Source of the DNA: Mobula hypostoma
Lineage: Eukaryota
Reading direction: 5' to 3'
NCBI RefSeq assembly: GCF_963921235.1
Contig: NC_086097.1
Coordinates: 161,574,001 to 161,638,000, forward strand
Length of the DNA: 64,000 nt
In this document: in pieces, positions 5,232 through 64,000 of the stretch
Position numbering within the stretch: position 1 is the stretch's first letter
How the letters are laid out: each line of letters starts with the position of its first letter
Made by a program: the position numbers and the translations under genes
The notes under the pieces: model-generated
What the model saw: the letters and a program-made list of their open reading frames with translations, nothing else
Databases searched by the model: none
What the model was told of the DNA's origin: nothing

Positions 5232-7326
5232 TTTTTTTAAAATTATTTTTAAAACTACAGTGAAACTACAGAAAAAAACCCAACAACAAAATGGAGATTT
5301 ATACAGTGCAAAACAATCCAATATGTAATTCTAACAATAAGAAAAAGCACCCAAAAGAGAATTATATAAAATTAGTATCCACTCCAACCGCCCACTGAAA
5401 AAAAAACCCAGGCCAACCATTTCTGCATATAAAAGAAAAAAAATTAATTGGCGCATTCAACCCCAGAGAACTGTAAATATATATATAGGAAAAAAGTATA
5501 ATGCCGACTACCAAAAGTATAATGTAATTCACAACAAAAAACCTGTATAACATACAAAAAAAGCTGAAAGTAAGGGATTGCAGCATACAGAAAAGGATAA
5601 ACTTAACCTACAGAAGAGTTATGAAAATATTCAAGAAAAGGTCCCCACACCTTATGAAACATTATGTCCAAATTAAGGAGTGAATAATTAATCTTTTCGA
5701 GGTCTAAACAGGCCATAACATCACTAAACCATTAAGTGTGAGTGGGTGGGGAAGCACCTTTCCACCTAAGAAGAACCAACCATCCAGCCAAGAGAGAGGC
5801 AAAAGATAATGTTCGACATTTAGTCGGATTCAAGTTCATATTTACTTCACCCAAGGTGCCAAAAAGAGCAACCAGAGGGTTAGGTTCAAACCAGTAATTA
5901 AGAATATGAGATAGGGTTGAAAAACCTTCTCTCCAGAATTTCTCTAGACTAGGACAGGCCTAGTACATATGAATAAGGGAAGCCTCAGCCCCTTTACACA
6001 TCACAGACAGGACTAATGTCAGGATAAAACTGCGATAATTTAGTTTTAGACATATGAGCCCTGTGTACAAACTTAAACTGCAAGAGGCAGTGGCGAGCAC
6101 ATAGAGAGGTTGAGTTGACTGACTTAAGAATTGAATCTCAAACCGCATCAGATAAGGAGATATTTAGATCTTGTTCCCAGGCAGTTCTAATTTTATCGAA
6201 AGGGGCACGCCTCAAAAATCACTAACTTATCCCGAATAGCAGCTATTAAACCTTTACCCAATGGATTGATACAAAGAAACAAGTCCAGAACATTTTTCTC
6301 AGGCATCTCAGGAAAGTTTGCTATCAAAGGGTTAATGAAATGTCTAATTTGAAGATATCTAAAGAAATGAGTATTAAGTAGATTAAACTTTACAGACAGT
6401 TGTTGAAAAGTTGCAAAACGATTATCTATGAAAAGATCTTCAAAGCGCCTAATACCCTTTCTATATCAGTCATAAAATGTTGAATCCCACATAGAAGGTA
6501 GGAAAAGATGATTGTGTAAAATAGGGCTAGAGAGAGAAAAACCATCAAGACCATTAAATTTTCTGAACTGAGTCCATATTCTTAAAGTATGTCTGATAAG
6601 AGGATTATCAATAAGTCTAGGGAAATGACAAGGAAGTGCGGAACCGAGAAGTGCAGAAATTGAAAGATCCTCAGTAGAGTTCAACTCCATTGCCACATGT
6701 TTTGGGCAGTCAGACTTATTATGGAAGAAAGACCAAAAAATAAGACAACGAATATTGGCTGCCCAATAATATAAATGAAAATTAGGCAAGGCCATACCAC
6801 TTTCCTTTTTAGATTTTTGAAGATGAGCATTATTAAGTCTAGGGCGTTTACCCTTCCATAGATAAGACAAAATAATAGAAGCTAACCCATCGAAAAAAGT
6901 TTTAGAAATAAAAATAGGTAAAGACTGAAATAGATACAAAAATTTAGGAAGGATATACATTTTAATAACATTAATATGACCTACAAGAGACATAGACAAG
7001 GGTGGCCACAGTGTCAAACTCTGTTTTGTAGAATTTAGAAGATTGGTAAAATTTTCTCGAAAAAGATTCTTGAAGTTCCTTGTTACCGTAATACCAAGAT
7101 AAGTGAATTGATTGTTAACTACTTTAAAAGGGAGGTCATGGAATACTAAAGCTTGTGCTTCTCTATTAACTGGAAAGAGTTCACTCTTATGTAAATTAAG
7201 TTTATAACCAGAAAGTTGACTAAATTTATTAAGAAGGGAAAACATTGAGGGCAAGGAGGTAATCGGGTTTGATATAAAAAATAAAAGATCATCAGCATAA
7301 AGGGAAACTTTATGCTCAACACCTCC
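5232..7326 (-). mobile_element. 5'-truncated L1/Tx1-clade LINE (RT C-terminal half through 3' UTR) inserted in the Penelope element
   Basis: ORF 6466..7356 has KVSLYADDLL, SGYKLNLHKSE, YLGI and LPKFLYLFQSLP. A-rich 3' end near 5232; tccaatc on both flanks is a possible TSD. Confidence 0.85.
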
Positions 7327-7739
7327 AATCTGACTGCATGAACATCGATTTCTCAAACTTTCACAAATTGCCCCCCTTCACCATTCCCTATTCTTGTTTT
7401 CCTCTCTTATTTTATTTTCTTAACCGCCCATCACTTCTCCTTGGTGTTCCTCCTCCTTCCCTTTCTTCCATGGTCTCTTGTCAGATTCCCCCTTCTCCAA
7501 CCCTTTAGCTCTTTCACCAATCAACTTCCCAGCTTTTCACTTCACGCCCTCCCCCTCTCCCGGTTTCACCCATCATCTGCTACCTTGTACTTCTTCCTCC
7601 CCTCCCCCCACCTTCTTACTCTGACCTCATCTTTCTTTCCAGTCCTGATGTCGGATCTCGGCCTGAAACATCGACTGTTTACTTTTTTCCATAGATGCTA
7701 TCTGGACTGCTAAGTTCCTCCAACATTTTGTAATAATGA

Positions 7740-16433: not shown

Positions 16434-17220
16434 TGCCACAGCAGTGTAACGATTAGTGTGCACAATTACAGCATAGGGTGTCAAGAATTCAGACTTCAAT
16501 TCCAGCATCCTCTGTAAGAATGTTTGTACATTCTCCCATCTGCAGATGGATTTCTTCTGGGTTCTTCAGTTTCATAGTCATAGTCATAATTTATTGATCC
16601 CGGGGGAAATTGGTTTTCGTTACAGTTGCACCATAAATAATAAATAGTAATAAAACCATAAATAGTTAAATAGTAATATGTAAATTATGCCAGTAAATTA
16701 TGAAATAAGTCCAGGACCAGCCTATTGGCTCAGGGTGTCTGACCCTCCAAGGGAGGAGTTGTAAAGTTTGATGGCCACAGGCAGGAATGACTTCCTATGA
16801 CGCTCTGTGTTGCATCTCGGTGGAATGAGTCTCTGGTTGAATGTACTCCTGTGCCCACCCAGTACATTATGTAGTGGATGGGAGACATTGTCCAAGATGG
16901 CATGCAACTTAGACAGCACCCTCTTTTCAGACACCACCGTCAGAGAGTCCAGTTCCATCCCCACAACATCACTGGCCTTACGAATGAGTTTGTTGATTCT
17001 GTTGGTGTCTGCTCCGCTCAGCATGCTGCCCCAACACACAACAGCAAACATGATAGCACTGGCCACCACAGACTTGTAGAACATCCACCCACAGTGCAAA
17101 GACTTACTGGTCAGTTGGTTAATTGGTCATTGTGATTAGGCTAGGATTAAATTGATGGGTTGCTGGGTGGTGCGGCTCAATGGGCCTAAAGGGCCTGTTC
17201 CATGCTGTATCTCTAAATAA
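16434..17220 (+). mobile_element. V-SINE (HE1-like) split by a Rex/Babar insertion at ~16574-17085
   Basis: The V-domain tttgtacattctccc...ggatttcttctgggttcttcagtttc resumes as cccacagtgcaaagac...ggttaattggtc after the insert. Confidence 0.7.
16574..17085 (-). mobile_element. Rex1/Babar LINE 3' fragment
   Basis: ORF 16722..17099 has FY.SVVASAI.FAVVCWG and HPLH...SFLPVAIKLYN. Near-identical to 29698-30195. Confidence 0.9.
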
Positions 17221-25799: not shown

Positions 25800-26430
25800 A
25801 GCCCCCATGATTTAACATTAGAAAAACCTATTCTAAGATTAAACAGGATTGGGAAAAGAAACTTAATTTGACTTTTATGACGGAGGATTGGATGCGGATA
25901 TTGAAGTTGGTTAACTCTTCTTCAATTTGTGCTAGCCACTCATTGATTCAATTTAAAGTTGTACATCCTTACCATTTGACAAAGGAGAGACTTTCTAAAA
26001 TCTTTCCTAATGTTGATAGTCATTGTGATAGATGTAAAACTGAGATAGCTACACTGACACATATGTTTTGGTCTTGTTCTATATTGGAACAGTTCTGGAA
26101 GTCGGTTTTCTCAACAATTTCTAAAGCACTTAAAATTAATTTACAACCTAATAAATTAACTGTGCTTTTTGGAATAGTTCCTCAAAATATTCATGGTATT
26201 TCTGTGTCTGACCAACATGTTATTGCATTTGTTACATTGATAGCTAGGAGGGCCATTTGTTGAAGTGGAAGGATACATCAGCTCCCACTTTGTCACAATG
26301 GTTCTCTCAAGTGAGGCTATGTCTCAGTTTGGAGAAAATTAGAAGTCGAACCTTTGAACCTTTATTTGATTTTGAGAAAAGGTAGGGCTCATTTGCTCGT
26401 TATTATCATTTGAGTTACTTGATATAATTG
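25800..26430 (+). mobile_element. L1/Tx1 ORF2 C-terminal fragment (CCHC zinc finger)
   Basis: ORF 25868..26263 has LIQFKVVH and CDRCK...LTHMFWSC. Confidence 0.85.
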
Positions 26431-29697: not shown

Positions 29698-30675
29698 ACA
29701 TAGTCATACTTTATTGATCCCGGGGGAAATTGGTTTTCGTTACAGTTGCACCATAAATAATAAATAGTAATAAAACCATAAATAATTCAATAGTAATATG
29801 TAAATTACACCAGGAAGCAAGTCCAGGACCAGCCTATATGGCTCAGGGTGTCTGACCCTCCAAGGGAGGAGTTGTAAAGTTTGATGGCCACAGGCAGGAA
29901 TGACTTCCTATGACGCTCTGTGCTGCATCTCAGTGGAATGAGTCTCTCGCTGAATGTACTCCTGTGCCCAACCAGTACATTATGTAGTGGATGGGAGACA
30001 TTGTCCAAGATGGCATGCAACTTGGACAGCATCCTCTTTTCAGACACCACCGTCAGAGAGTCCAGTTCCATTCCCACAACATCACTGGCCTTACGAATGA
30101 GTTTGTTGATTCTGTTGGTGTCTGCTACCCTCAGCCTGCTGCCCCAGCACACAACAGCAAACATGATCGCACTGGCCACCACAGACTCATAGAACATCCT
30201 CAGCATCGTCCGGCAGATGTTCAAGGACCTCAGTCTCCTCAGGAAATAGAGACGGCTCTGACCCTTCTTGTAGACAGCCTCAGTGTTCTTTGACCAGTCC
30301 AGTTTATTGTCAATTCGTATCCCCAGGTATTTGTAATCCTCCACCATGTCCACACTGACCCCCTGGATGGAAACAGGGGTCACCAGTACCTTAGCTCTCG
30401 TCAGGTCTACCACCAGCTCCTTAGTCTTTTTCACATTAAGCTGCAGATAATTCTGCTCACACCATGTGACAAAGTTTCCTACCGTAGCCCTGTACTCAGC
30501 CTCATCTCCCTTGCTGATGCATCCAACTATGGCAGAGTCATCAGAAAACTTCTGAAGATGACAAGACTCCGTGCAGTAGTTGAAGTCCGAGGTGTAAATG
30601 GTGAAGAGAAAGGGAGACAAGATAGTCCCCTGTGGAGCCCCAATGCTGCTGATCACTCTGTCGGACACAGTGTTG
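29698..30675 (-). mobile_element. Rex1/Babar LINE, 5'-truncated, with open RT C-terminal half
   Basis: ORF 29805..30746 has GAPQGTILSPFLFTIYTSD, KFSDD, LNVKKTKELVVD and YKYLG. Confidence 0.92.
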
Positions 30676-30754
30676 CAAGACAGATAAACTGTCTCCAGAG
30701 ATAGAGACAGAGAGATAAACTGGAGATAAGCGTGATTCACACACAATAGGCATT

Positions 30755-43454: not shown

Positions 43455-46400
43455 CAATTTTTTTTTAATTGAAGGAATGACACAATACAGAATATATAAT
43501 GGATTACATTTTCCTCCATTTTGCTTTTATATCGTACCCCCAGAACAAACCTACCCCCACCCGCCCTCCCCGAACATATCATGGCAGCTAATATATTTAC
43601 AACACAGCAATTCACAAATACAAGTACGGACATTTCACAACCATACCCCCACACTACTCCAAGATGACGGCTCACACATATCTGCAACATGTCAGATGAT
43701 CCAAAATACACTCATATTTACAATTCATCAACCACCCTGTGAGGTAAATTATAAGCGTGTTAAATGGGAGGCAACTTCCCAAGTACAATCAAATGCCCTC
43801 AACTAGTAGGTAATTCCTTAAGACTCCCAAAATATAATAAGAAAGGTCCCCATTTCGAATAGAACTTTTTCACAGACCCCCTCAAAGTGAATTTAATCTT
43901 TTCTAATTTCAGAAAAAACATTACAGCTTCTAACCAAGCAGCAGCAGTTGGGGGAGTGGCAGATTTCCAAACCCGCAAAATTCTCCTACGGGCCAATAGC
44001 GATATAAATGCAATGATATCCGACTGGCTTGCATTTAAACCCAAATCATCATCTGCAACACCAAATACAGCTATAAGCGGACAAGGTCTCAGTGTCACCC
44101 CCAAAACGTCACTGATAATTTTAAAAACCCGTGCCCAATAGTTGTCAAGCCGAGGGCATGACCAAAATGCATGTACTAAACCAGCCGGAGAGAAGGAACA
44201 CCTGTCACAGCCAGCGTCTGTCCCAGGGTATATGTCTGCAAGTCTGGCTTTACTTAAATGTACCCTGTGTAAAACTTTAAATTGTATGAGCCCCAGTCTA
44301 GCACATGATGATGAGAAATGAACCCTATTCAATACTTTTGCCCAATATTCCTCAGCCAGATCCATACCGAGGTCATCCTCCCACCTACTCTTAGTTTTGT
44401 TCAGATCTTGAACTCCCAAAGACATTAGCTGAGAGTATAGTTCAGAGATCAGCCCTTTATTGTTAAAGCTAAGAGTGAGTTTTTCCCATAACATAGCAGG
44501 TGGTAGATCAGGAAAAGAGGGAGATTTTTCCTTGACAAAGTGGCAAATCTGCAGGTATTTAAAAAAATGATTATGCGGAAGGCCATACTTGCCGCTCAGG
44601 CTATCAAAACTATCAAATATGTTATGAGTATACAATTCCTTAATGCGCACAAGACCCTTCAAACCCCATTGTCTGAAAGCTGAATCGAATGTGGAGGGAA
44701 GAAATAAACGTTTTTTATGAATGGGGCCCAAAACTGAAGCTGATATGAACTTATAGTGGCAGCGAAATTGATTAAGAATTTTGAGGATGGAGAGCACGAC
44801 CGGGTTAGATGTGAATTGAGAGGATTTCAATGGTAAGGAAGAATACACCAAAGCTGGGAGAGACGAGGAGTGGCAAGACCGTAACTCAAGCAGGCACTAG
44901 ATCATACCTGGCTGATGGAGCCAAAATAATACTTTTTGAATGTTCGATGCCCAGTAATAATGAATAAAGCTGGGAAGACCCATTCCACCTACGTCACGAC
45001 CTCTTTGGAGAGTGTGCTTATTAACCCTTGGGACCTGATTTTTCCAAATAAAGGAGGTTATAGCTTGGTCAACTGATTTAAAAACTAACTTAGATAAGAA
45101 AATTGGCAAACACTGAAACAAATAAAGAAATCTAGGAAGTATAGTCATTTTCACTGACTGAATTCTCCCAGCTATTGTAAGGGGTAAACTGTGCCATCTC
45201 TCGAAATCAGCCTTCATTTGGCTAACCTGAGGGCTGTAGTTAGCTTCAAACAGAGATGTAAAAGAGCGAGTAATATGTATTCCTAGGTATACAAAACCAG
45301 CCTGAGATAAAGGAAAAGGCAAAGATTCCTGTCGAATCTGTAGGGCCAAGTTATTAATGGGAAAGCATTTGCTTTTTTGAAAGTTCAGTTTATAGCCAGA
45401 GAAGACTCCAAAGTGACCTAATAATGACACAATAGCACGACCACTATCTACAGGGTCGCTAATATAAAGTAAGAGGTCATCAGCATATAGGGATACACGG
45501 TGCTCCATGTCCCCTTTTCTAACACCTTGAAATAATGTAGTTGACTTAAATGCAATAGAAAGAGGCTCAATTGCAATTGCAAAAAGAAGAGGGGACAATG
45601 GGCAGCCTTGGCGAGTGCCACGTGTTAATGGGAAATACTCAGATCGAAAATAATTTGTCTGTATACATGCTAAGGCGAGTGGTATAATAGCTTAACCCAA
45701 GCTATAAATATTCTGCCAAATCCAAATTTCTCCAAAACACTAAACAAATATACCCACTCCACTCTATCAATCGCCTTCTCCGCGTCCAAGGAGATAACAA
45801 CCTCCGGACTTGGAGAATCACTGGGTGAATAAACCACATCAGCCAGTCGACGGATATCAAAAAAAGAATGGCAATTTTTAATAAAACCTGTTTGATCGTC
45901 TGAAATTATCTTGGGAAGGGGACGTTCTAAACGGCATGCAAGCACTTTAGCCAAAATTTTCACATCTACATTCAAAAGTGAGATGGGGTGATATAATCCA
46001 CATTGAGTCGGGTCCTTGTCCTTTTTAAGAAGTAGTGAAATAGCTGCCTGTGGAAGAGAAGGGGGTAAGGATCCGTTCCCCAAAGATTCCTGAAACACTT
46101 CTAGAAGGACCGGTATGAGCTTATCCTTAAATTTTTTAAAAAATTCTATTGGATAACCATCAGGACCTGGGGACCTACCACTCTGCATAGCCATGATGGC
46201 GTTATTAATCTCTTCCTGCCCAAGAGCTCGGTCTAGGTTCTCCACCTCCTCTGGTTCAAGAGTTGGTATTTCCAAATTATCTAAAAAACATTCCATATTT
46301 GTGTTATCTGAGGGGACCTCTGAGGCATACAGAGAGGAATAAAAAGTTGCAAAGATGTTATTAATCTCTTTTGGATTGCTTGTCAAGTTTTGGTGCGTGT

Positions 46401-47035
46401 CTCTTATCTGGGGAATAAGTCGTGATGCAGCTTGATGTTTCAACCGATGAGCCATAAGCTGGCTCGCCTTGTCAACATATTCATAATAGAGGCCACATGT
46501 CTTAAGAATTAATTGTCCTGATAGGTTTGTAGATAGAAGATTAAACTTCGCTTGCAAATCAACCTGGCTTTCATATAATTCCGCAGTGGGTGCCTCAGAG
46601 TATTTTCTATCCAGGTCCAAAATAGATTGCAATAACACTTGCATTTCCTTCCTATGCTCTTTAATGGCATGTGAAGTATAAGATATTATTTGACCCCTCA
46701 AGTAAGCTTTTAAAGTTTCCCAAAGTAAAAAATACGATTCCGACTCAGTTTTGTGAGTCTCGAAGAATGTGTCAATGTTAGCCGATATATAACTACAAAA
46801 TTTCTCATTAGAAAGCAAACGGGGGTTAAGTCTCCACAGAGGCCGTTCTCTAACGTTTAAAGGAAAACATAGGTCCAGTTTCACGGGCGAGTGATCAGAT
46901 ATAACTATAGCAGTGAATTCAGTTTGTTTAATCATTGGTATCAAGGAGTTCTCTATAAAGAAATAGTCCAGCCTAGAATGGGAGTGGTGAACATGAGAAA
47001 AGAAAGAGTATTACCTAACTGATGGATTCGAAAAT
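43455..47035 (-). mobile_element. L1/Tx1-clade LINE with near-complete ORF2 (end of EN, RT, CCHC); one frameshift and one nonsense codon
   Basis: ORFs 45670..46944, 44897..45598 and 43799..44851 give SDHSPV, SPGPDGYP, DQTGFI, LDAEKA.DRV, LYADDLL and CDRC...H.FWSC. 1-nt frameshift near 45670; in-frame TAG at 44897. Confidence 0.93.
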
Positions 47036-47264
47036 CATTGTGAGTGACTTCAACTTCCCCAACATAGACTGGGAACTCCTTAATACACAAAGTCAGAGAG
47101 GGCAGGATTGGTTAGAAGTCTCCAAGAGGATTTCCTGAAGCAGTATGTACAGTCAATTACAGGAGAAGCTATACAGTTATTGTACTGGGGAATGAACCCA
47201 GCCAGGTTACTGACCTGTAAGTGGGTGAACACTTGGGAAGCAACTTTAAGCTAGCTATGAATAA

Positions 47265-50200
47265 GAACATAGAACATAGAATAGCACAGCACAGTACAGG
47301 CCCTTCAGCCCAATGTTGTGCCGACCCTCAAACCCTGTCTCCCATATAAGCCCCCACCTTAAATTCCTCCATATACCTCTCTAGTCGTCTCTTAAACTTC
47401 GCTAGTGTATCTGCCTCCACCACTGACTCAGGCAGTGCATTCCATGCATCAACCACTCTCTGAGTAAAAAACCTTCCTCTAATATTCCCCTTGAACTTCC
47501 CACCCCTTACCTTAAAGCCACGTCCTCTTGTATTCAGCAGTGGTGCCCTGGGGAGGAGGCGCTGGCTATCCACTCTATCTATTCCTCTTGTTATCTTGTG
47601 CGCCTCTATCATGTCTCCTCTTATCCTCCTTCTCTCCAAAGAGTAAAGCCCCAGCTCCCTTAATCTCTGATCATAATGCTTACTCTCTAAACCAGGCAGC
47701 ATTCTGGTAAATCTCCTCTGTACCCTTTCCAATGCTTCCACATCCTTCCTACAGTGAGCCGACCAGAACTAGATACAGTACTCCAAGCGTGGCCTAACCA
47801 GAGTTTTATAGAGCTGCATCATTACATCGCGACTCTTAAACTCTATCCCTCGACTTATGAAAGCTAACACCCCATAAGCTTTCTTAACTACCCTATCCAC
47901 CTGTGAGGGAACTTTCAGGGATCTGTGGACATGTATCCCCAGATCCCTCTGCTCCTCCACACTACCAAGTATCCTGCCATTTACTTTGTACTCCGCCTTG
48001 GGAGTTTGTCCTTCCAAAGTGTACCACCTCATACTTCTCCGGGTTGAACTCCATCTGCCACTTCTCAGCCCACTTCTGCATCCTATCAATGTCTCTCTGC
48101 AATCTTTGATAATCCTCTACACCATCTACAACACCACCAACCTTTGTGTCGTCTGCAAACTTGCCAACCCACCCTTCTACCCCCACATCCAGGTCGTTAA
48201 TAAAAATCACGAAAAGTAGAGGTCCCAGAACAGATCCTTGTGGGACACCACTAGTCACAATCCTCCAATCTGAAAGTACTCCCTCCACCACCACCCTCTG
48301 CCTTCTGCAGGCAAGCCAATTCTGAATCTACCTGGCCAAACTTCCCTGGATCCCATGCCTTCTGACTTTCTGAATAAGCCTACCGTGTGGAACCCAGTCA
48401 AATGCCTTACTAAAATCCATATAGATCACATCCACTGCACTACCCTCATCTATATGCCTGGTCATCTCCTCAAAGAACTCTATCAGGCTTGTTAGACACA
48501 ATCTGCCCTTCACAAAGCCATGCTGACTGTCCCTGATCAGACCATGATTCTCTAAATGCCCAGAGATATATCTTTAAGAATCTTTTCCAATAGCTTTCCC
48601 ACCACAGACGTAAGGCTCACTGGTCTATAATTACCTGGACTATCCCTACTACCTTTTTGAACAAGGGGATAACATTCGCCTCCCTCCAATCCTCCAGTAC
48701 CATTCCCATGGACAACGAGGACATAAAGATCCTAGCCAGAGGCTCAGCAATCTCTTCCCTAGCCTCGTGGAGCAGCCTGGGGAATATTCCGTCAGGCCCC
48801 GGGGACTTAACCGTCCTAATGTATTTTAACAACTCCAACACCTCCTCTCCCTTAATATCAACATGCTCCAGAACATCAACCTCACTCATATTGTCCTCAC
48901 CATCAAGTTCCCACTCATTGGTGAATACTGAAGAGAAGTATTCATTGAGGACCTCGCTCACTTCCATAGCCTCCAGGCACATCTTCCCACCTTTATCTAT
49001 AATCAGTCCTACCTTCACTCCTGTCATCCTTTCTTTCTTCACATAATTGAAGAATGTCTTGGGGTTTTCCTTTACCTTACTCGCCAATGCCTTCTCATGT
49101 CCCCTTCTTGCTCTTCTCAGCCCCTTCTTAAGCTCCCTTCTTGCTTCCCTATATTCCCCAATAGACCCATCTGATCCTTGCTTCCTAAACCTCATATATG
49201 CTGCCTTCTTCCATCTGACTAGATTTTCCACCTCACTTGTCATCCATGGTTCCTTCACCCTACCAATCTTCATCTTCCTCACCGGGACAAATTTATCCCC
49301 AACATTCTGCAAGAGATCTCTAAACATCGACCATATGTCCATAGTACATTTCCCTGCAAAAACATCATCCCAATTCACACCCGCAAGTTCTAGCCTTATA
49401 GCCTCATAATTTGCCCTTCCCCAATTAAAAATTTTCCTGTCCTCTCTGATTCTATCCTTCTCCACGATAATGCTAAAGGCCAGGGAGCAGTGGTCACTGT
49501 CCCCCAGATGCTCACCCACTGAGAGATCTGTGACCTGACCCGGTTCATTACCTAGTACTAGATCTAGTATAGCATTCCCCCTAGTCAGCCTGTCCACATA
49601 CTGTGACAAGAATCCGTCCTGGACACACTTAACAAACTCCGCCCCATCTAAACCCTTGGAACTAATCAGGTGCCAATCAATATTAGGGAAGTTAAAGTCA
49701 CCCATGATAACAACCCTTCTATTTTTGCACCTTTCCAAAATCTGCCTCCCAATCTGCTCCTCTGTATCTCTGCTGCTACCAGGGGGCCTATAGAATACCC
49801 CCAGTGGAGTAACTGCTCTCTTCCTGTTCCTGACTTCCACCCATACCGACTCAAAAGAGGATCCTGCTACATTACCCACCCTTTCTGTAGCTGTAATAGT
49901 ATCCCTCACCAGTAATGCCACCCCTCCTCCCCTTTTTCCACCCTCTCTATCCCTTTTAAAGCACTGAAGTCCAGGAATATTGAGAATCCATTCCTGCCCT
50001 GGTGCCAGCCAAGTCTCTGTAATAGCCACTACATCATAATTCCATGTATGTATCCAAGCTCTCAGTTCATCACCTTTGTTCCTGATGCTTCTTGCACTGA
50101 GGTACACACACTTCAGCCCTTCTACCTTACTGTCTTTACACGGTTTATTCTGCTTCTCTTTGCTCAAAGCCTCTCTGTATGTTAGATCTGGCTTTACTCC

Positions 50201-50790
50201 ATGCACTTCTTTCACTGGTCTATCGCTCTGGGTCCCATCCCCCTTGCAAATTAGTTTAAACCCTCCCGAACCACGCTAGCAAACCTACCTGCAAGGATAT
50301 TGCTCCCCCTCGAGTTCAGGTGCAACCCATCCAATCTGTACAGGTCCCACCTTCCCCAGAAGAGATCCCAATGATCCAAAAATCTAAAACCCTGCCCCCT
50401 GCACCAACTTCTCAGCCACGCATTCAACTGCCATCTCCTCCAATTCTTACCATCACTGTCACGCAGCACTGGCAGCAATCCTGAGAACGCCACCCTTGAG
50501 GTCCTGTTCTTCAGCCTTCTGCTTAGTTCCCGAAACTCTCACTTCAGGACCTCATCCCTCTTCCTGCCTATGCCGTTGGTCCCTACATGTATCACAACTT
50601 CTGGTTGCTTTCCCTCTCGTACCAGGATGTCGTGCACCCAGTCAGAGACATCCCGGACCCTGGCACCCGGGAGGCAACAAATCATGTGGGTGTCCTTCTC
50701 ACATCCACAAAATCTCCTGTCTGCTCCCCTGACTATAGAGTCTCCAGCTGTCCTCTTCTCCGTGCCGGAGGCCCTGCCACCGTGGCTCAC
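47265..50790 (-). mobile_element. CR1 LINE, nearly full length: ORF1 SGNH esterase (~50251-50740), ORF2 EN+RT (47328-50260) with a few frameshifts, 3' repeat tail
   Basis: GDSIVRG, HVGTN and DGLHLN in ORF1; ITETW, GVFYRPP, GDFNFP, SDH, SPGPDGI, DFSKAFD, GVPQGSVLGPLLF and FADDTK in ORF2; (agaacat)n tail at 47265. Confidence 0.95.
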
Positions 50791-51604
50791 ACCTGGTCGG
50801 TCGTCCCTGCCAAAAGTATCCATAAAAATGTGTGGAGCTTGCAGTAAAGTATTAAATTGCAGGATTGAAAATTATATCATACAGGAGCAAAGTAAAAGTT
50901 AATTGGGAAAAATGTTTTCGGGCAAATCAACATCTGACATGTGGAGCTTGTTTAAAGATTAGATGCACTGAGTTCAGGACTGGTACGTTCCAGCAGAAGG
51001 AAGAACACAGATGGGAAGGTACACACTTTGGAAGATCCACAATTAATGGTAGGACCTTAAACAACAATGAAGAACAGAGGCACATGGGTCCACAGGTACA
51101 TGGCTCCCTAAAAGTGGCTGCACAGGTTGATAGGATGGTAAACATAGTATATATATGCATGCCATCATTAGTCAATATTGAGTTCAAGAGCCAGTAGGTT
51201 ACAAAACTGCTTTACAAAACTCTGATTAGGCTACATGGATGAATAAAGATATACGTAAAAATTATTGAAGACATTAAATTAGGAATACAGAAAAAAATGT
51301 AATGATGTTAATGCTAGGCCATATGAAAATATGAGAGCTAAAGTCAAGAGGGAAATTCGATTTCCAAAAGGCATCCTGAGAAGAATATTGCTGATGATCC
51401 TATGATTGACCCCAAGAGATTTGTTCAATACTTCAGGAATAAAAGAAGTCAAGGAGGAAGTTAATTGTATTAGAAATAATAGTGGGGTGTTAAATTATGC
51501 AGAGAAGGACAAACCGAATTCTCTGAACTCATATTTTGCTATAGTATTCACTGTGAAGAAGTTAGCAATCTGCCAGTAAATGTAGAGAAAAATAAGGTTG
51601 TTTT

Positions 51605-62229: not shown

Positions 62230-64000
62230 CAAGAACAAGACTGCGCAGACGTGTGACGTCGGGCAGTGAAGCGCGGGAGATTTAAAAGGAACAGAGCTTC
62301 GTACAGTGGGCAGCATAGTTTGCGGGCGGCAGAGTGAGCCGGGAGCACAGTGAAGGCTTAAGGGCTTTGGCTCAACGGGCTTAGGCGGAAACGGGTAAGG
62401 TGAGGAAGGTTTGGTATTCATTTTTTGTTGTTATTTGAGGAGAGGGGCAGTATGAGGGTAAGGGCAGCTTGTTGTTCTAGGTGCCGGATGTGGGAGGCCC
62501 TGGAGTCTCCAAGCCTCCCGGACGTCCACATCTGCGCCAGGTGCACCGAGATGCAGCTCCTAAGGGACCGCGTTAGGGAACTGGAGCTGTAGCTCGATGA
62601 CCTTCGTCTGGTCAGGGAGAGCGAGGAGTTGATAGAGAGGAGTTACAGGCAGGTGGTCACACCGGGGCCACGGGAGGCAGACAAGTGGGTCACGGTTAGG
62701 AGGGGGAAGGGGAAGAGTCAGGAAATAGAGAGTACCCCAGTGGCTGTGCCCCTTAACAATAGGTACTCCTGTTTGAGTACTGTTGAGGGGGACAGCTTAC
62801 CTGGGGGAAGTGACAGTAGCCGTGCCTCCGGCACAGAGTCTGGCCCTATAGCTCAGAAGGGTAGGGAAAGGAAGAGGAAGGCAGTTGTAACAGGGGACTC
62901 GATAGTAAGGGGGTCAGATAGGCGATTCTGTGGATGCAGTCCAGAGACCCGGATGGTAGTTTCCCTCCCTGGTGCCAGGGTCCGGGATATTTCTGATCGC
63001 GTCCAAGATATCCTGAAGTGGGAGGGTGAGGAGACAGAGGTCGTGGTACATATAGGTACCAATGACATAGGTAGGAAAAGGGAAGAGGTCCTGAAAGGAG
63101 AATATAGGGAGTTAGGAAGGGAGTTGAGAAAAAGGACCGCAAAGGTAGTAATCTCGGGATTACTGCCTGTGCCACACGACAGTGAGAGTAGGAATGCAAT
63201 GAGGTGGAGGATAAATGCGTGGCTGAGGGATTGGAGCAGGGGGCAAGGATTCAAGTTTTTGGATCATTGGGACCTCTTTTGGCGCGGGTGTGACCCCTAC
63301 AAAAAGGACGGGTTACACTTGAATCCTAGGGGGACCAATACCCTGGCGGGGAGATTTGCGACGGCTACTGAGGTGACTTTAAACTAGAATGGTTGGGGGG
63401 TGGGAAGCAAATTAAAGAGACTAGGAGAGAGGAGGTTAGTTCACAAAAGGGGGATGGGAACAAGTGCAGAGAGACAGAGGGGTGTAAAATGAGGGTAGAA
63501 GCAAAAAGTAGTAATGGCAGGCCAGCAAATCCAGGGCAAAAATCAAAATGGGCCACTTCTCAACAAAATTTTATAAGGGCTAAGAGTGTTGTAAAAGCGA
63601 GCCTGAAGGCTTTGTGTGTCAATGCAAGGAGCATTTGTAACAAGGTGGATGAATTAAAAGTGCAGATTGTTATTAATGAATATGATATAGTTGGGATCAC
63701 AGAGACATGGCTCCAGGGTGACCAAGGATGGGAGCTCAACATTCAGGGATATTCAATATTCAGGAGGGATAGACATGAAAGAAAAGGAGGTGGGGTAGCA
63801 TTGCTGGTTAGAGAGGAGATTAACACAATAGAAAGGAAGGACATTAGCCGGGAGGATGTGGAATCGATATGGGTAGAGCTGCATAACACTAAGGGGCAGA
63901 AAACGCTGGTGGGAGTTGTGTACAGGCCACCTAACAATAGTAGTGAGGTTGGGGATGGTATTAAACAAGAAATTAGAAATGCGTGCAATAAAGGAACAGC
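62230..64000 (+). mobile_element. CR1 LINE 5' end: CpG-rich 5' UTR, ORF1 (62452-63387; Zn finger, coiled coil, SGNH esterase; one TAG at 62590) and start of the ORF2 endonuclease, running off the window
   Basis: CCSRC...HICARC, LRDRVRELEL, GDSIVRG, HIGTND and DGLHLN in ORF1; NARSI.NK.DEL, ITETW, GGGVALLV and GVVYRPP in ORF2. Confidence 0.93.

Follow-up and report, generated by a model that had tools for sequence, protein, structure and literature searches.

A probable −1 ribosomal frameshift at the ORF1/ORF2 junction of esterase-bearing CR1-type LINEs

Introduction

The locus described here raises the question of how ORF2 of a LINE, which encodes an endonuclease and a reverse transcriptase (RT), can be translated when it overlaps the end of ORF1 in the −1 frame and offers no ATG ahead of its endonuclease. 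In the available parts of PMC3894237 and PMC3708506, ORF2 translation in LINEs is treated as an unresolved matter, and stop–start, IRES and 2A routes are discussed. The window (the whole stretch of DNA that was analysed, 64 000 nucleotides in length) is repeat-rich animal DNA with a GC content of about 41%, and it holds only two copies of the ORF1 esterase, which belong to element A on the minus strand and element B on the plus strand. An earlier note on this DNA had proposed that a T_TTA_AAC heptamer followed at once by a stop codon forms a conserved recoding signal, for which the two elements were taken as independent support within one window. The signal is indeed present in both elements; however, their independence was overstated, as the two are related by descent (their esterases are 62% identical in amino acids and 73% identical in nucleotides). 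A conserved recoding signal is nevertheless the best reading and is backed by distant lineages that use different heptamers, and the comparison of junctions reported below makes it likely that programmed −1 ribosomal frameshifting yields an ORF1–ORF2 fusion in these CR1-type LINEs.

Materials and methods

Loci for the comparison of junctions were fetched with protein alignments of ORF1 or of the endonuclease, and the heptamer was not used in the search. The ORF1 queries gave 26 metagenome loci, 20 of which were examined (L012, L013 and L021–L024 were left out); six of these 20 were esterase LINEs, and the remaining 14 were dropped as having no endonuclease frame at the stop. The endonuclease queries gave four loci (L027–L030), from which L029 was taken into the tally, while L027, a weak non-LINE match, was rejected as a LINE relative and L028 was rejected for the tally as being without a junction. 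The tally comprised eight junctions (A, B, L001, L003, L004, L005, L006 and L029), L002 being a near-copy of L006; L003 and L006 are close kin, and in L029, the ORF1 of which is broken upstream, the frame was set from the DGLHL motif. A tally of methionine positions in 120 ORF2 proteins was set aside as a count, since gene calling and missed regex matches had skewed it. For the C-termini of ORF1, a profile was built from LN-ending proteins; out of 7290 cluster representatives the 150 best were taken, and 103 of these contain the DxxH motif. Public contigs were compared with window positions 50040–50440; one of the runs concerned, X15, is an RNA run by guess only.

Results

Element A (Table 1) is very probably a CR1-clade LINE, judging from its domains (PF03372/PF14529 for the APE endonuclease, then PF00078 for the RT). 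A gene model of Mobula hypostoma matches its endonuclease at 89% identity, and the nearest named proteins are those of rays, skates and sharks, which makes a cartilaginous fish the probable host; its RT is 46–58% identical to that of the swallow protein P0210, the ORF1 of which ends in LN, and 43% identical to that of the esterase-less locus L030, these values being identities only. The ORF1 remnant contains one premature TGA (50541–50539), and no target-site duplication was found around the element. About 250 nt from element A lies a long L1/Tx1-like ORF2 fragment (43799–47010, minus strand), and further long fragments of this kind are found at 6466–7377 (minus) and 25811–26263 (plus). Another LINE family is represented by two near-identical 3′ ends (29805–30752 and 16722–17126, both minus), each of which is adjoined by a similar 25–26-nt tandem unit (29750–29798 and 16630–16678).

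Table 1. Coordinates of elements A and B and of the features at their ORF1/ORF2 junctions in the window.
Feature	Position	Strand	Remarks
Element A, 5′-truncated, decayed CR1-type LINE	47264..50820	−	5′ end approximate
Element A, ORF1 remnant, SGNH esterase	50251..50820	−	C-terminus ...FASVVREGLN*; 62% identical to B esterase
Element A, TAG shutting the −1 frame 5′ of the junction	50276..50278	−	
Element A, slippery heptamer T_TTA_AAC in ORF1 phase	50254..50260	−	Context GAG GGT TTA AAC TAA
Element A, ORF1 stop TAA	50251..50253	−	Immediately 3′ of heptamer
Element A, G5-N2-GGGA motif	50233..50243	−	Candidate 3′ stimulator
Element A, AUG-less linker, 48 codons	50117..50260	−	Open in −1; the two remaining frames have 6 and 5 stops
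Element A, ORF2 endonuclease and spacer	48617..50116	−	
Element A, ORF2 reverse transcriptase and C-terminus	47328..48597	−	Broken by stops and frame changes
Element A, 3′ microsatellite tail	47264..47281	−	TTCTATG repeats
Element B, ORF1	62452..63387	+	ATG, CxxC..CxxC finger, esterase, C-terminus ...ATEVTLN*
Element B, heptamer T_TTA_AAC and TAG	63378..63387	+	ORF1/ORF2 overlap 16 nt
Element B, G6-T-GGGA motif	63395..63405	+	
Element B, ORF2 in −1 frame	63378..64000	+	Linker, then endonuclease running past window end

Reading of the sequence confirmed what had been described for the junction of element A, namely the heptamer, the TAA that follows it and a −1 frame that continues into the endonuclease. 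ORF1 and ORF2 overlap by only 25 nt. An open stretch of the −1 frame extends from 50275 to 48617 (552 codons from stop to stop), and from the heptamer onwards the frame reads FKLICKGDG..., leading into the APE endonuclease (Pfam PF03372, E = 5.7e-18). The first ORF2-frame ATG is found at 49705–49703 (IMGDFN), inside the endonuclease and 555 nt past the start of the heptamer, and the SARS, ITETW and YRPP motifs of the endonuclease all precede it. The earlier note had placed the start of the endonuclease ORF at the GTG at 50215; this codon is an ORF-finder call only, the linker having 12 such near-cognate codons, and was rejected as a demonstrated start of ORF2. A second in-phase heptamer, G_GGT_TTA (50263–50257, minus), lies one codon 5′ of T_TTA_AAC, and the overlapping pair (50263–50254) could offer two slip chances. 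TTTAAAC occurs 18 times in the window against an expectation of 15.3; as the heptamer by itself is not rare, and no commoner than by chance, the argument rests only on where it lies and in which phase.

In element B, the esterase was recognized as PF13472 (E = 4.4e-16), and ORF1 contains one premature TAG (62590–62592). The claim that heptamer, stop, phase and downstream G-run are kept in both elements is sound: T_TTA_AAC plus a stop, ORF2 in −1 and a G5-N1-3-GGGA motif are found in each. Two further claims stand only in part. The linker peptides had been called unrelated, which is true of most of their length; however, the first nine or so residues are related (FKLICKGDG in A and FKLEWLGGG in B). 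The statement that ORF2 has no early ATG is true of A; it fails for several relatives and for B, in which an ORF2-frame ATG at 63489, common to the relatives P0248 and P0252, lies in the linker before the endonuclease.

Among the tallied esterase-LINE junctions, ORF2 overlaps ORF1 in the −1 frame in all eight, with an overlap of 16–52 nt in the seven junctions measured. T_TTA_AAC directly followed by a stop is found in A, B, L003 and L006, G_TTA_AAC TAG in L001 and G_GGA_AAC TAG in L005, whereas L004 has A_AAA_AAC 33 nt 5′ of the stop and L029 has T_TTT_TTA one codon 5′ of it; five different known slippery heptamers are thus distributed over the eight junctions. A canonical in-phase X_XXY_YYZ lies inside the overlap in seven of the eight, the eighth being L001 with its G_TTA_AAC. 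In the control, in-phase canonical heptamers were found at nine of 2644 codon positions (0.3%), which corresponds to 0.010–0.050 per junction; multiplication over the four distinct canonical heptamers gives about 1e-6 under an assumption of independence, which is overstated since the loci are related. In all eight junctions no stop interrupts the −1 frame of the linker between the heptamer and either the first ATG or the endonuclease, with P values on shuffling of 0.014 (A), 0.061, 0.079, 0.153, 0.062, 0.445, 0.184 and 0.0005 (L029). Because these relatives were found without use of the heptamer, and because the heptamer changes while the −1 rule holds, they provide better support than the pair of A and B.

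Several observations were made alongside the tally. At 1675–1684 of L003, in-phase T_TTT_TTA and T_TTA_AAC overlap and could give two slip chances. The ORF1 queries gave no matches in the viral contigs or the genome contigs, and a scan of the viral contigs for the pattern of heptamer plus G motif gave 22 loci, none of which had an esterase or endonuclease HMM match. A 10-kb contig of the viral collection, L040, contains C_TTA_AAC TAA and then a long G-rich tract (1501–1527, minus) and had no LINE domain match. Several records that are named as bacterial (Pseudomonas, Proteus, Aeromonas and two MAGs; P0016, P0050, L028, L029 and L030) contain LINE sequences, which points to contamination of public assemblies with animal DNA.

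Downstream of the heptamer, a G5-N1-3-GGGA motif begins 7–10 nt after the start of the stop codon in A, B, L001, L003 and L006. The motif is unique in A (3551 nt), L001 (3186 nt), L003 (4133 nt) and L006 (1389 nt), and B contains two more copies elsewhere. Its register relative to the ORF2 codons varies, which points to selection at the nucleotide level, and we infer that it may act as a stimulator in A, B and related elements. Within their elements, the G-rich 25 nt lie at the 88th–99.5th percentile. In the linker of B, a second motif, G5-AT-GGGA (63449–63459, plus), lies 54 nt past the first and reads KGDG like the junction-proximal copy in A; it is possibly an old duplication, for which the 24 of 60 positions identical at a 60-nt offset are not convincing. 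The usual 3′ stem-loop 5–9 nt downstream was not found in A or B, and no significant local 3′ stem was found in A, B, L001 or L003 (z from −2.0 to +1.5); the values for A were +0.5 with 80 nt and −2.0 with 120 nt (stem start about 48 nt away), and the value for B was +1.5. Stems about 8–11 nt past the heptamer are present in L005 (z = −3.76), where the usual spacing is found, and in L029 (z = −2.40, at about 11 nt). An Rfam search of the junctions gave no match, no consistent or shared long-range pairing partner was found across them, and a G-quadruplex was rejected as the stimulator in A, which has too few G tracts and no predicted G4. According to the part of PMC5009743 that was available, spacers are of 5–9 nt, and there are unstructured 3′ stimulators that presumably act by pairing with rRNA or by binding a protein.

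The alternative that survives best, and which we nevertheless consider improbable, is that ORF2 is reached by termination–reinitiation of the L1/SART1 or TURBS kind at a nearby AUG or near-cognate codon, the heptamer being incidental or secondary. Reinitiation is documented for SART1 and favoured for L1, and an ORF2-frame ATG lies before or at the first endonuclease strand in five of the eight junctions (B, L001, L003, L005 and L006), that of B being shared with its relatives as noted above. In A, an ATT overlaps the stop (TAATT) as a near-cognate echo of UAAUG, and TGGGA, which presumably resembles the TURBS core, is found 96–117 nt upstream in A, B and L001. In addition, in L030, a LINE that has a CR1-like RT but no esterase, ORF2 lies in the frame of ORF1 and has its own ATG 3 nt past the ORF1 stop (TAG GAC ATG at 2360–2372); the −1 overlap is therefore not universal, and this junction is a candidate reinitiation or readthrough site. 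However, the nearest ORF2-frame ATG of the eight tallied junctions is 44–107 nt from the ORF1 stop or is absent before the endonuclease (as in A, L004 and L029), and none of the eight has the ORF2-frame AUG within 30 nt of the stop that a stop–start arrangement calls for, while TURBS needs about 20–30 nt (PMC10275272, in the part available). B, L003 and L006 do have ATGs next to the stop, but not in the frame of ORF2, the near-cognate codon varies in identity and place across lineages, and the upstream TGGGA consists of Trp-Asp/Glu codons and is absent from L003–L006 and L029. Reinitiation would also leave the fixed −1 overlap and the five slippery heptamers unexplained. Both routes, frameshifting and reinitiation, could coexist in some families.

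A second alternative is that Leu-Asn-stop is kept for the sake of the protein, as the end of the last esterase helix, and was inherited together with a −1 phase and codons that are ancestral leftovers. Leu174 and Asn175 are indeed invariant in alignment A2, and A and B are of common ancestry; the C-termini of ORF1 proteins make this reading very unlikely, and we regard it as largely refuted already. In the initial search, 28 of 36 DxxH-motif matches ended in LN. Among the 103 representatives with the motif, 66 have a C-terminal dipeptide compatible with a heptamer (LN in 49, GN in 11, KN in four and others in two) against a background of 5%, and the 37 with an incompatible ending include some broken copies and some with an internal dipeptide. 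The residue before the dipeptide is Gln in nine of the 11 proteins ending in GN and in one of 55 before LN (p = 1.4e-8, a value that overstates independence because representatives and loci are related and several are near-copies), and Glu, Gln, Lys, Met or Trp, the codons of which are unable to end in T, precede LN in two of 55 against 17% expected. These endings count in favour of frameshifting. The Gln-before-GN pattern matches the codon endings of the heptamer and is not predicted by a peptide constraint, under which it would also be difficult to see why endings switch to GN, KN and FL as the heptamer rule permits, why TTA AAC and the preceding T are retained across proteins that are 37–62% identical, or why the heptamer of L004 lies so far ahead of its stop.

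The named LN-ending members, which extend the ending to amniotes at the protein level, include swallow, snake, lizards and turtles (ten were looked up and nine were named, one of these nine not ending in LN). Two copies, P0050 and P0099, are already shifted upstream and read ...FKL... at the junction. In P0141, P0168, P0176, P0179 and P0203 a Lys-Asn pair is fixed about 12 residues before the stop, as in L004, which suggests an A_AAA_AAC site in a longer overlap.

It is likewise very unlikely that ORF2 is read from a spliced or a separate transcript, or that this copy belongs to a single-ORF element and owes its −1 offset to mutation. Element A is decayed and has other frame breaks, and one gene model among the longer proteins, the only one to do so, fuses ORF1 to the endonuclease in frame: P0208, the Hypanus sabinus RefSeq model `hydroxyacid oxidase 2', is a CR1 ORF1 esterase joined to an endonuclease between ARGG and FKL, probably through an indel in the G run or as a model artefact. 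Against damage to this copy, the −1 offset recurs in all eight junctions, and a contig of X15 (319 nt, depth 259) spans 50040–50338 with six differences and no gap. None of the six falls in the heptamer or the stop and none makes an ORF2-frame ATG, two of them making ATGs in the ORF1 frame; the supposition that a family ATG near 50215 was lost by mutation here is accordingly without support. At a threshold of 5% no indels were listed for either X15 (267 contigs) or X1 (16350), no joint at the junction was among those listed (15/51), and no other letter at 50219–50267 was among the rows listed (40/87), which leaves room for rarer variation in the heptamer. Transcriptional slippage, which is unlikely on runs of three bases, was rejected, as the runs here are only three long.

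Discussion

The reading that we prefer is programmed −1 frameshifting at the end of ORF1. Most ribosomes would terminate at the TAA and release ORF1p, whereas a minority would slip back by one base on Leu-Asn, with the P-site codon UUA re-pairing as UUU and the A-site codon AAC as AAA. The slipped ribosomes would then cross the variable linker into the endonuclease and reverse transcriptase, and the minor product would be an ORF1–linker–endonuclease–RT fusion comparable to Gag-Pol. Such a route would keep ORF2p scarce and attached to the particle of ORF1p. The stimulator may, with less certainty than the slip itself, be the adjacent stop together with an unstructured G5-N1-3-GGGA at the mRNA entry channel in A, B and their kin, and in two other lineages it would be an ordinary stem-loop. 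The fact that LINEs are without a protease to free ORF2p counts against a fusion.

A broader proposal may be put forward tentatively, as one that we think could be right but would not yet expect to be: the esterase-bearing CR1 elements, which are dominant in birds, reptiles and cartilaginous fish, would make their RT only as an uncleaved fusion through an ancient −1 frameshift, the main lineage having acquired a new stimulator that consists of the adjacent stop and the unstructured G5-N1-3-GGGA, acting via rRNA or a bound protein and not through an RNA fold. Frameshifting at this junction, if it does occur, would answer how very common elements (CR1 makes up 11.8% of the chicken model chromosomes according to the available part of PMC11835228) make their copying enzyme, and would be a second solution besides reinitiation. 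It would predict an ORF1–ORF2 fusion protein, would mean that CR1 ORF2 models begun at the first Met are truncated, would show those who build active CR1 assays what must stay intact, and would add a genome-encoded frameshift site of animals with an unusual stimulator.

The elements resemble the CR1 clade in the cysteine finger of ORF1, which is present in B, while the 5′-truncated A retains only the esterase, in the SGNH esterase itself and in the APE and RT of ORF2. Element A ends in a microsatellite, the repeat of which is the 7-mer TTCTATG; CR1 elements have a 3′ hairpin and a microsatellite tail, with an octamer repeat in amniotes (PMC4316615, in part). The elements differ in the route proposed for ORF2, as the available parts of PMC4316615, PMC11835228, PMC8665684 and PMC3708506 are silent on a frameshift or on how ORF2 is translated, the word `frameshift' having no occurrence in that of PMC3708506. 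No report of a CR1 frameshift was found in the accessible literature, including the available parts of PMC4255032, PMC5006619, PMC1925062, PMC8665684, PMC4316615, PMC10275272 and PMC11835228; Haas 1997, Kajikawa 1997 and Kapitonov and Jurka 2003 may mention one. The supplements of PMC8665684 and PMC4316615, with the exception of one file of the latter, contain no ORF1/ORF2 junction, and two matches to TTTAAACTAA in them are in 3′ ORF2 sequence.

SART1 and mammalian L1 share with these elements a bicistronic LINE RNA and a low output of ORF2, but SART1 uses a UAAUG stop–start and L1 a spacer with unconventional reinitiation, and neither makes a fusion. The ORF1s of A and B are homologues of PDB entry 4C1B, which we take to be the zebrafish ZfL2-1 ORF1 esterase, and contain the same domain (profile E = 2.8e-38). 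In contrast, the representatives with the DGLHP motif of the 4C1B type have a compatible ending in two of eight cases, compared with 64 of the 95 others, so this branch probably has no frameshift at the end of ORF1.

The Dictyostelium elements TRE5-A and TRE3-A are likewise APE-type LINEs, for the ORF2 of which a figure legend in the review PMC5911963 states a −1 frameshift; they belong to another clade with an unrelated ORF1, and the available text of that review gives neither heptamer nor stimulator. The viral −1 sites (U_UUA_AAC of IBV, G_UUA of equine arteritis virus and the retroviral gag-pol sites) have the same arrangement of an in-phase heptamer at the end of ORF1, a −1 ORF and a polymerase downstream (PMC5009743, in part), and differ from A and B in that the latter show no detected 3′ stem, have a stop at once after the heptamer and have no protease for the fusion. 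As given in the same part of PMC5009743, T_TTA_AAC, G_GGA_AAC and A_AAA_AAC are among the four most shift-prone sites, and the G_TTA_AAC of L001 is of the equine arteritis virus type. Of the features by which such sites are recognized, an in-phase heptamer, an open ORF in −1 and conservation of the signal at the nucleotide level were found here, and a structured stimulator was not found in A or B; the comparative evidence that the esterase-bearing CR1 LINEs use a −1 frameshift is strong.
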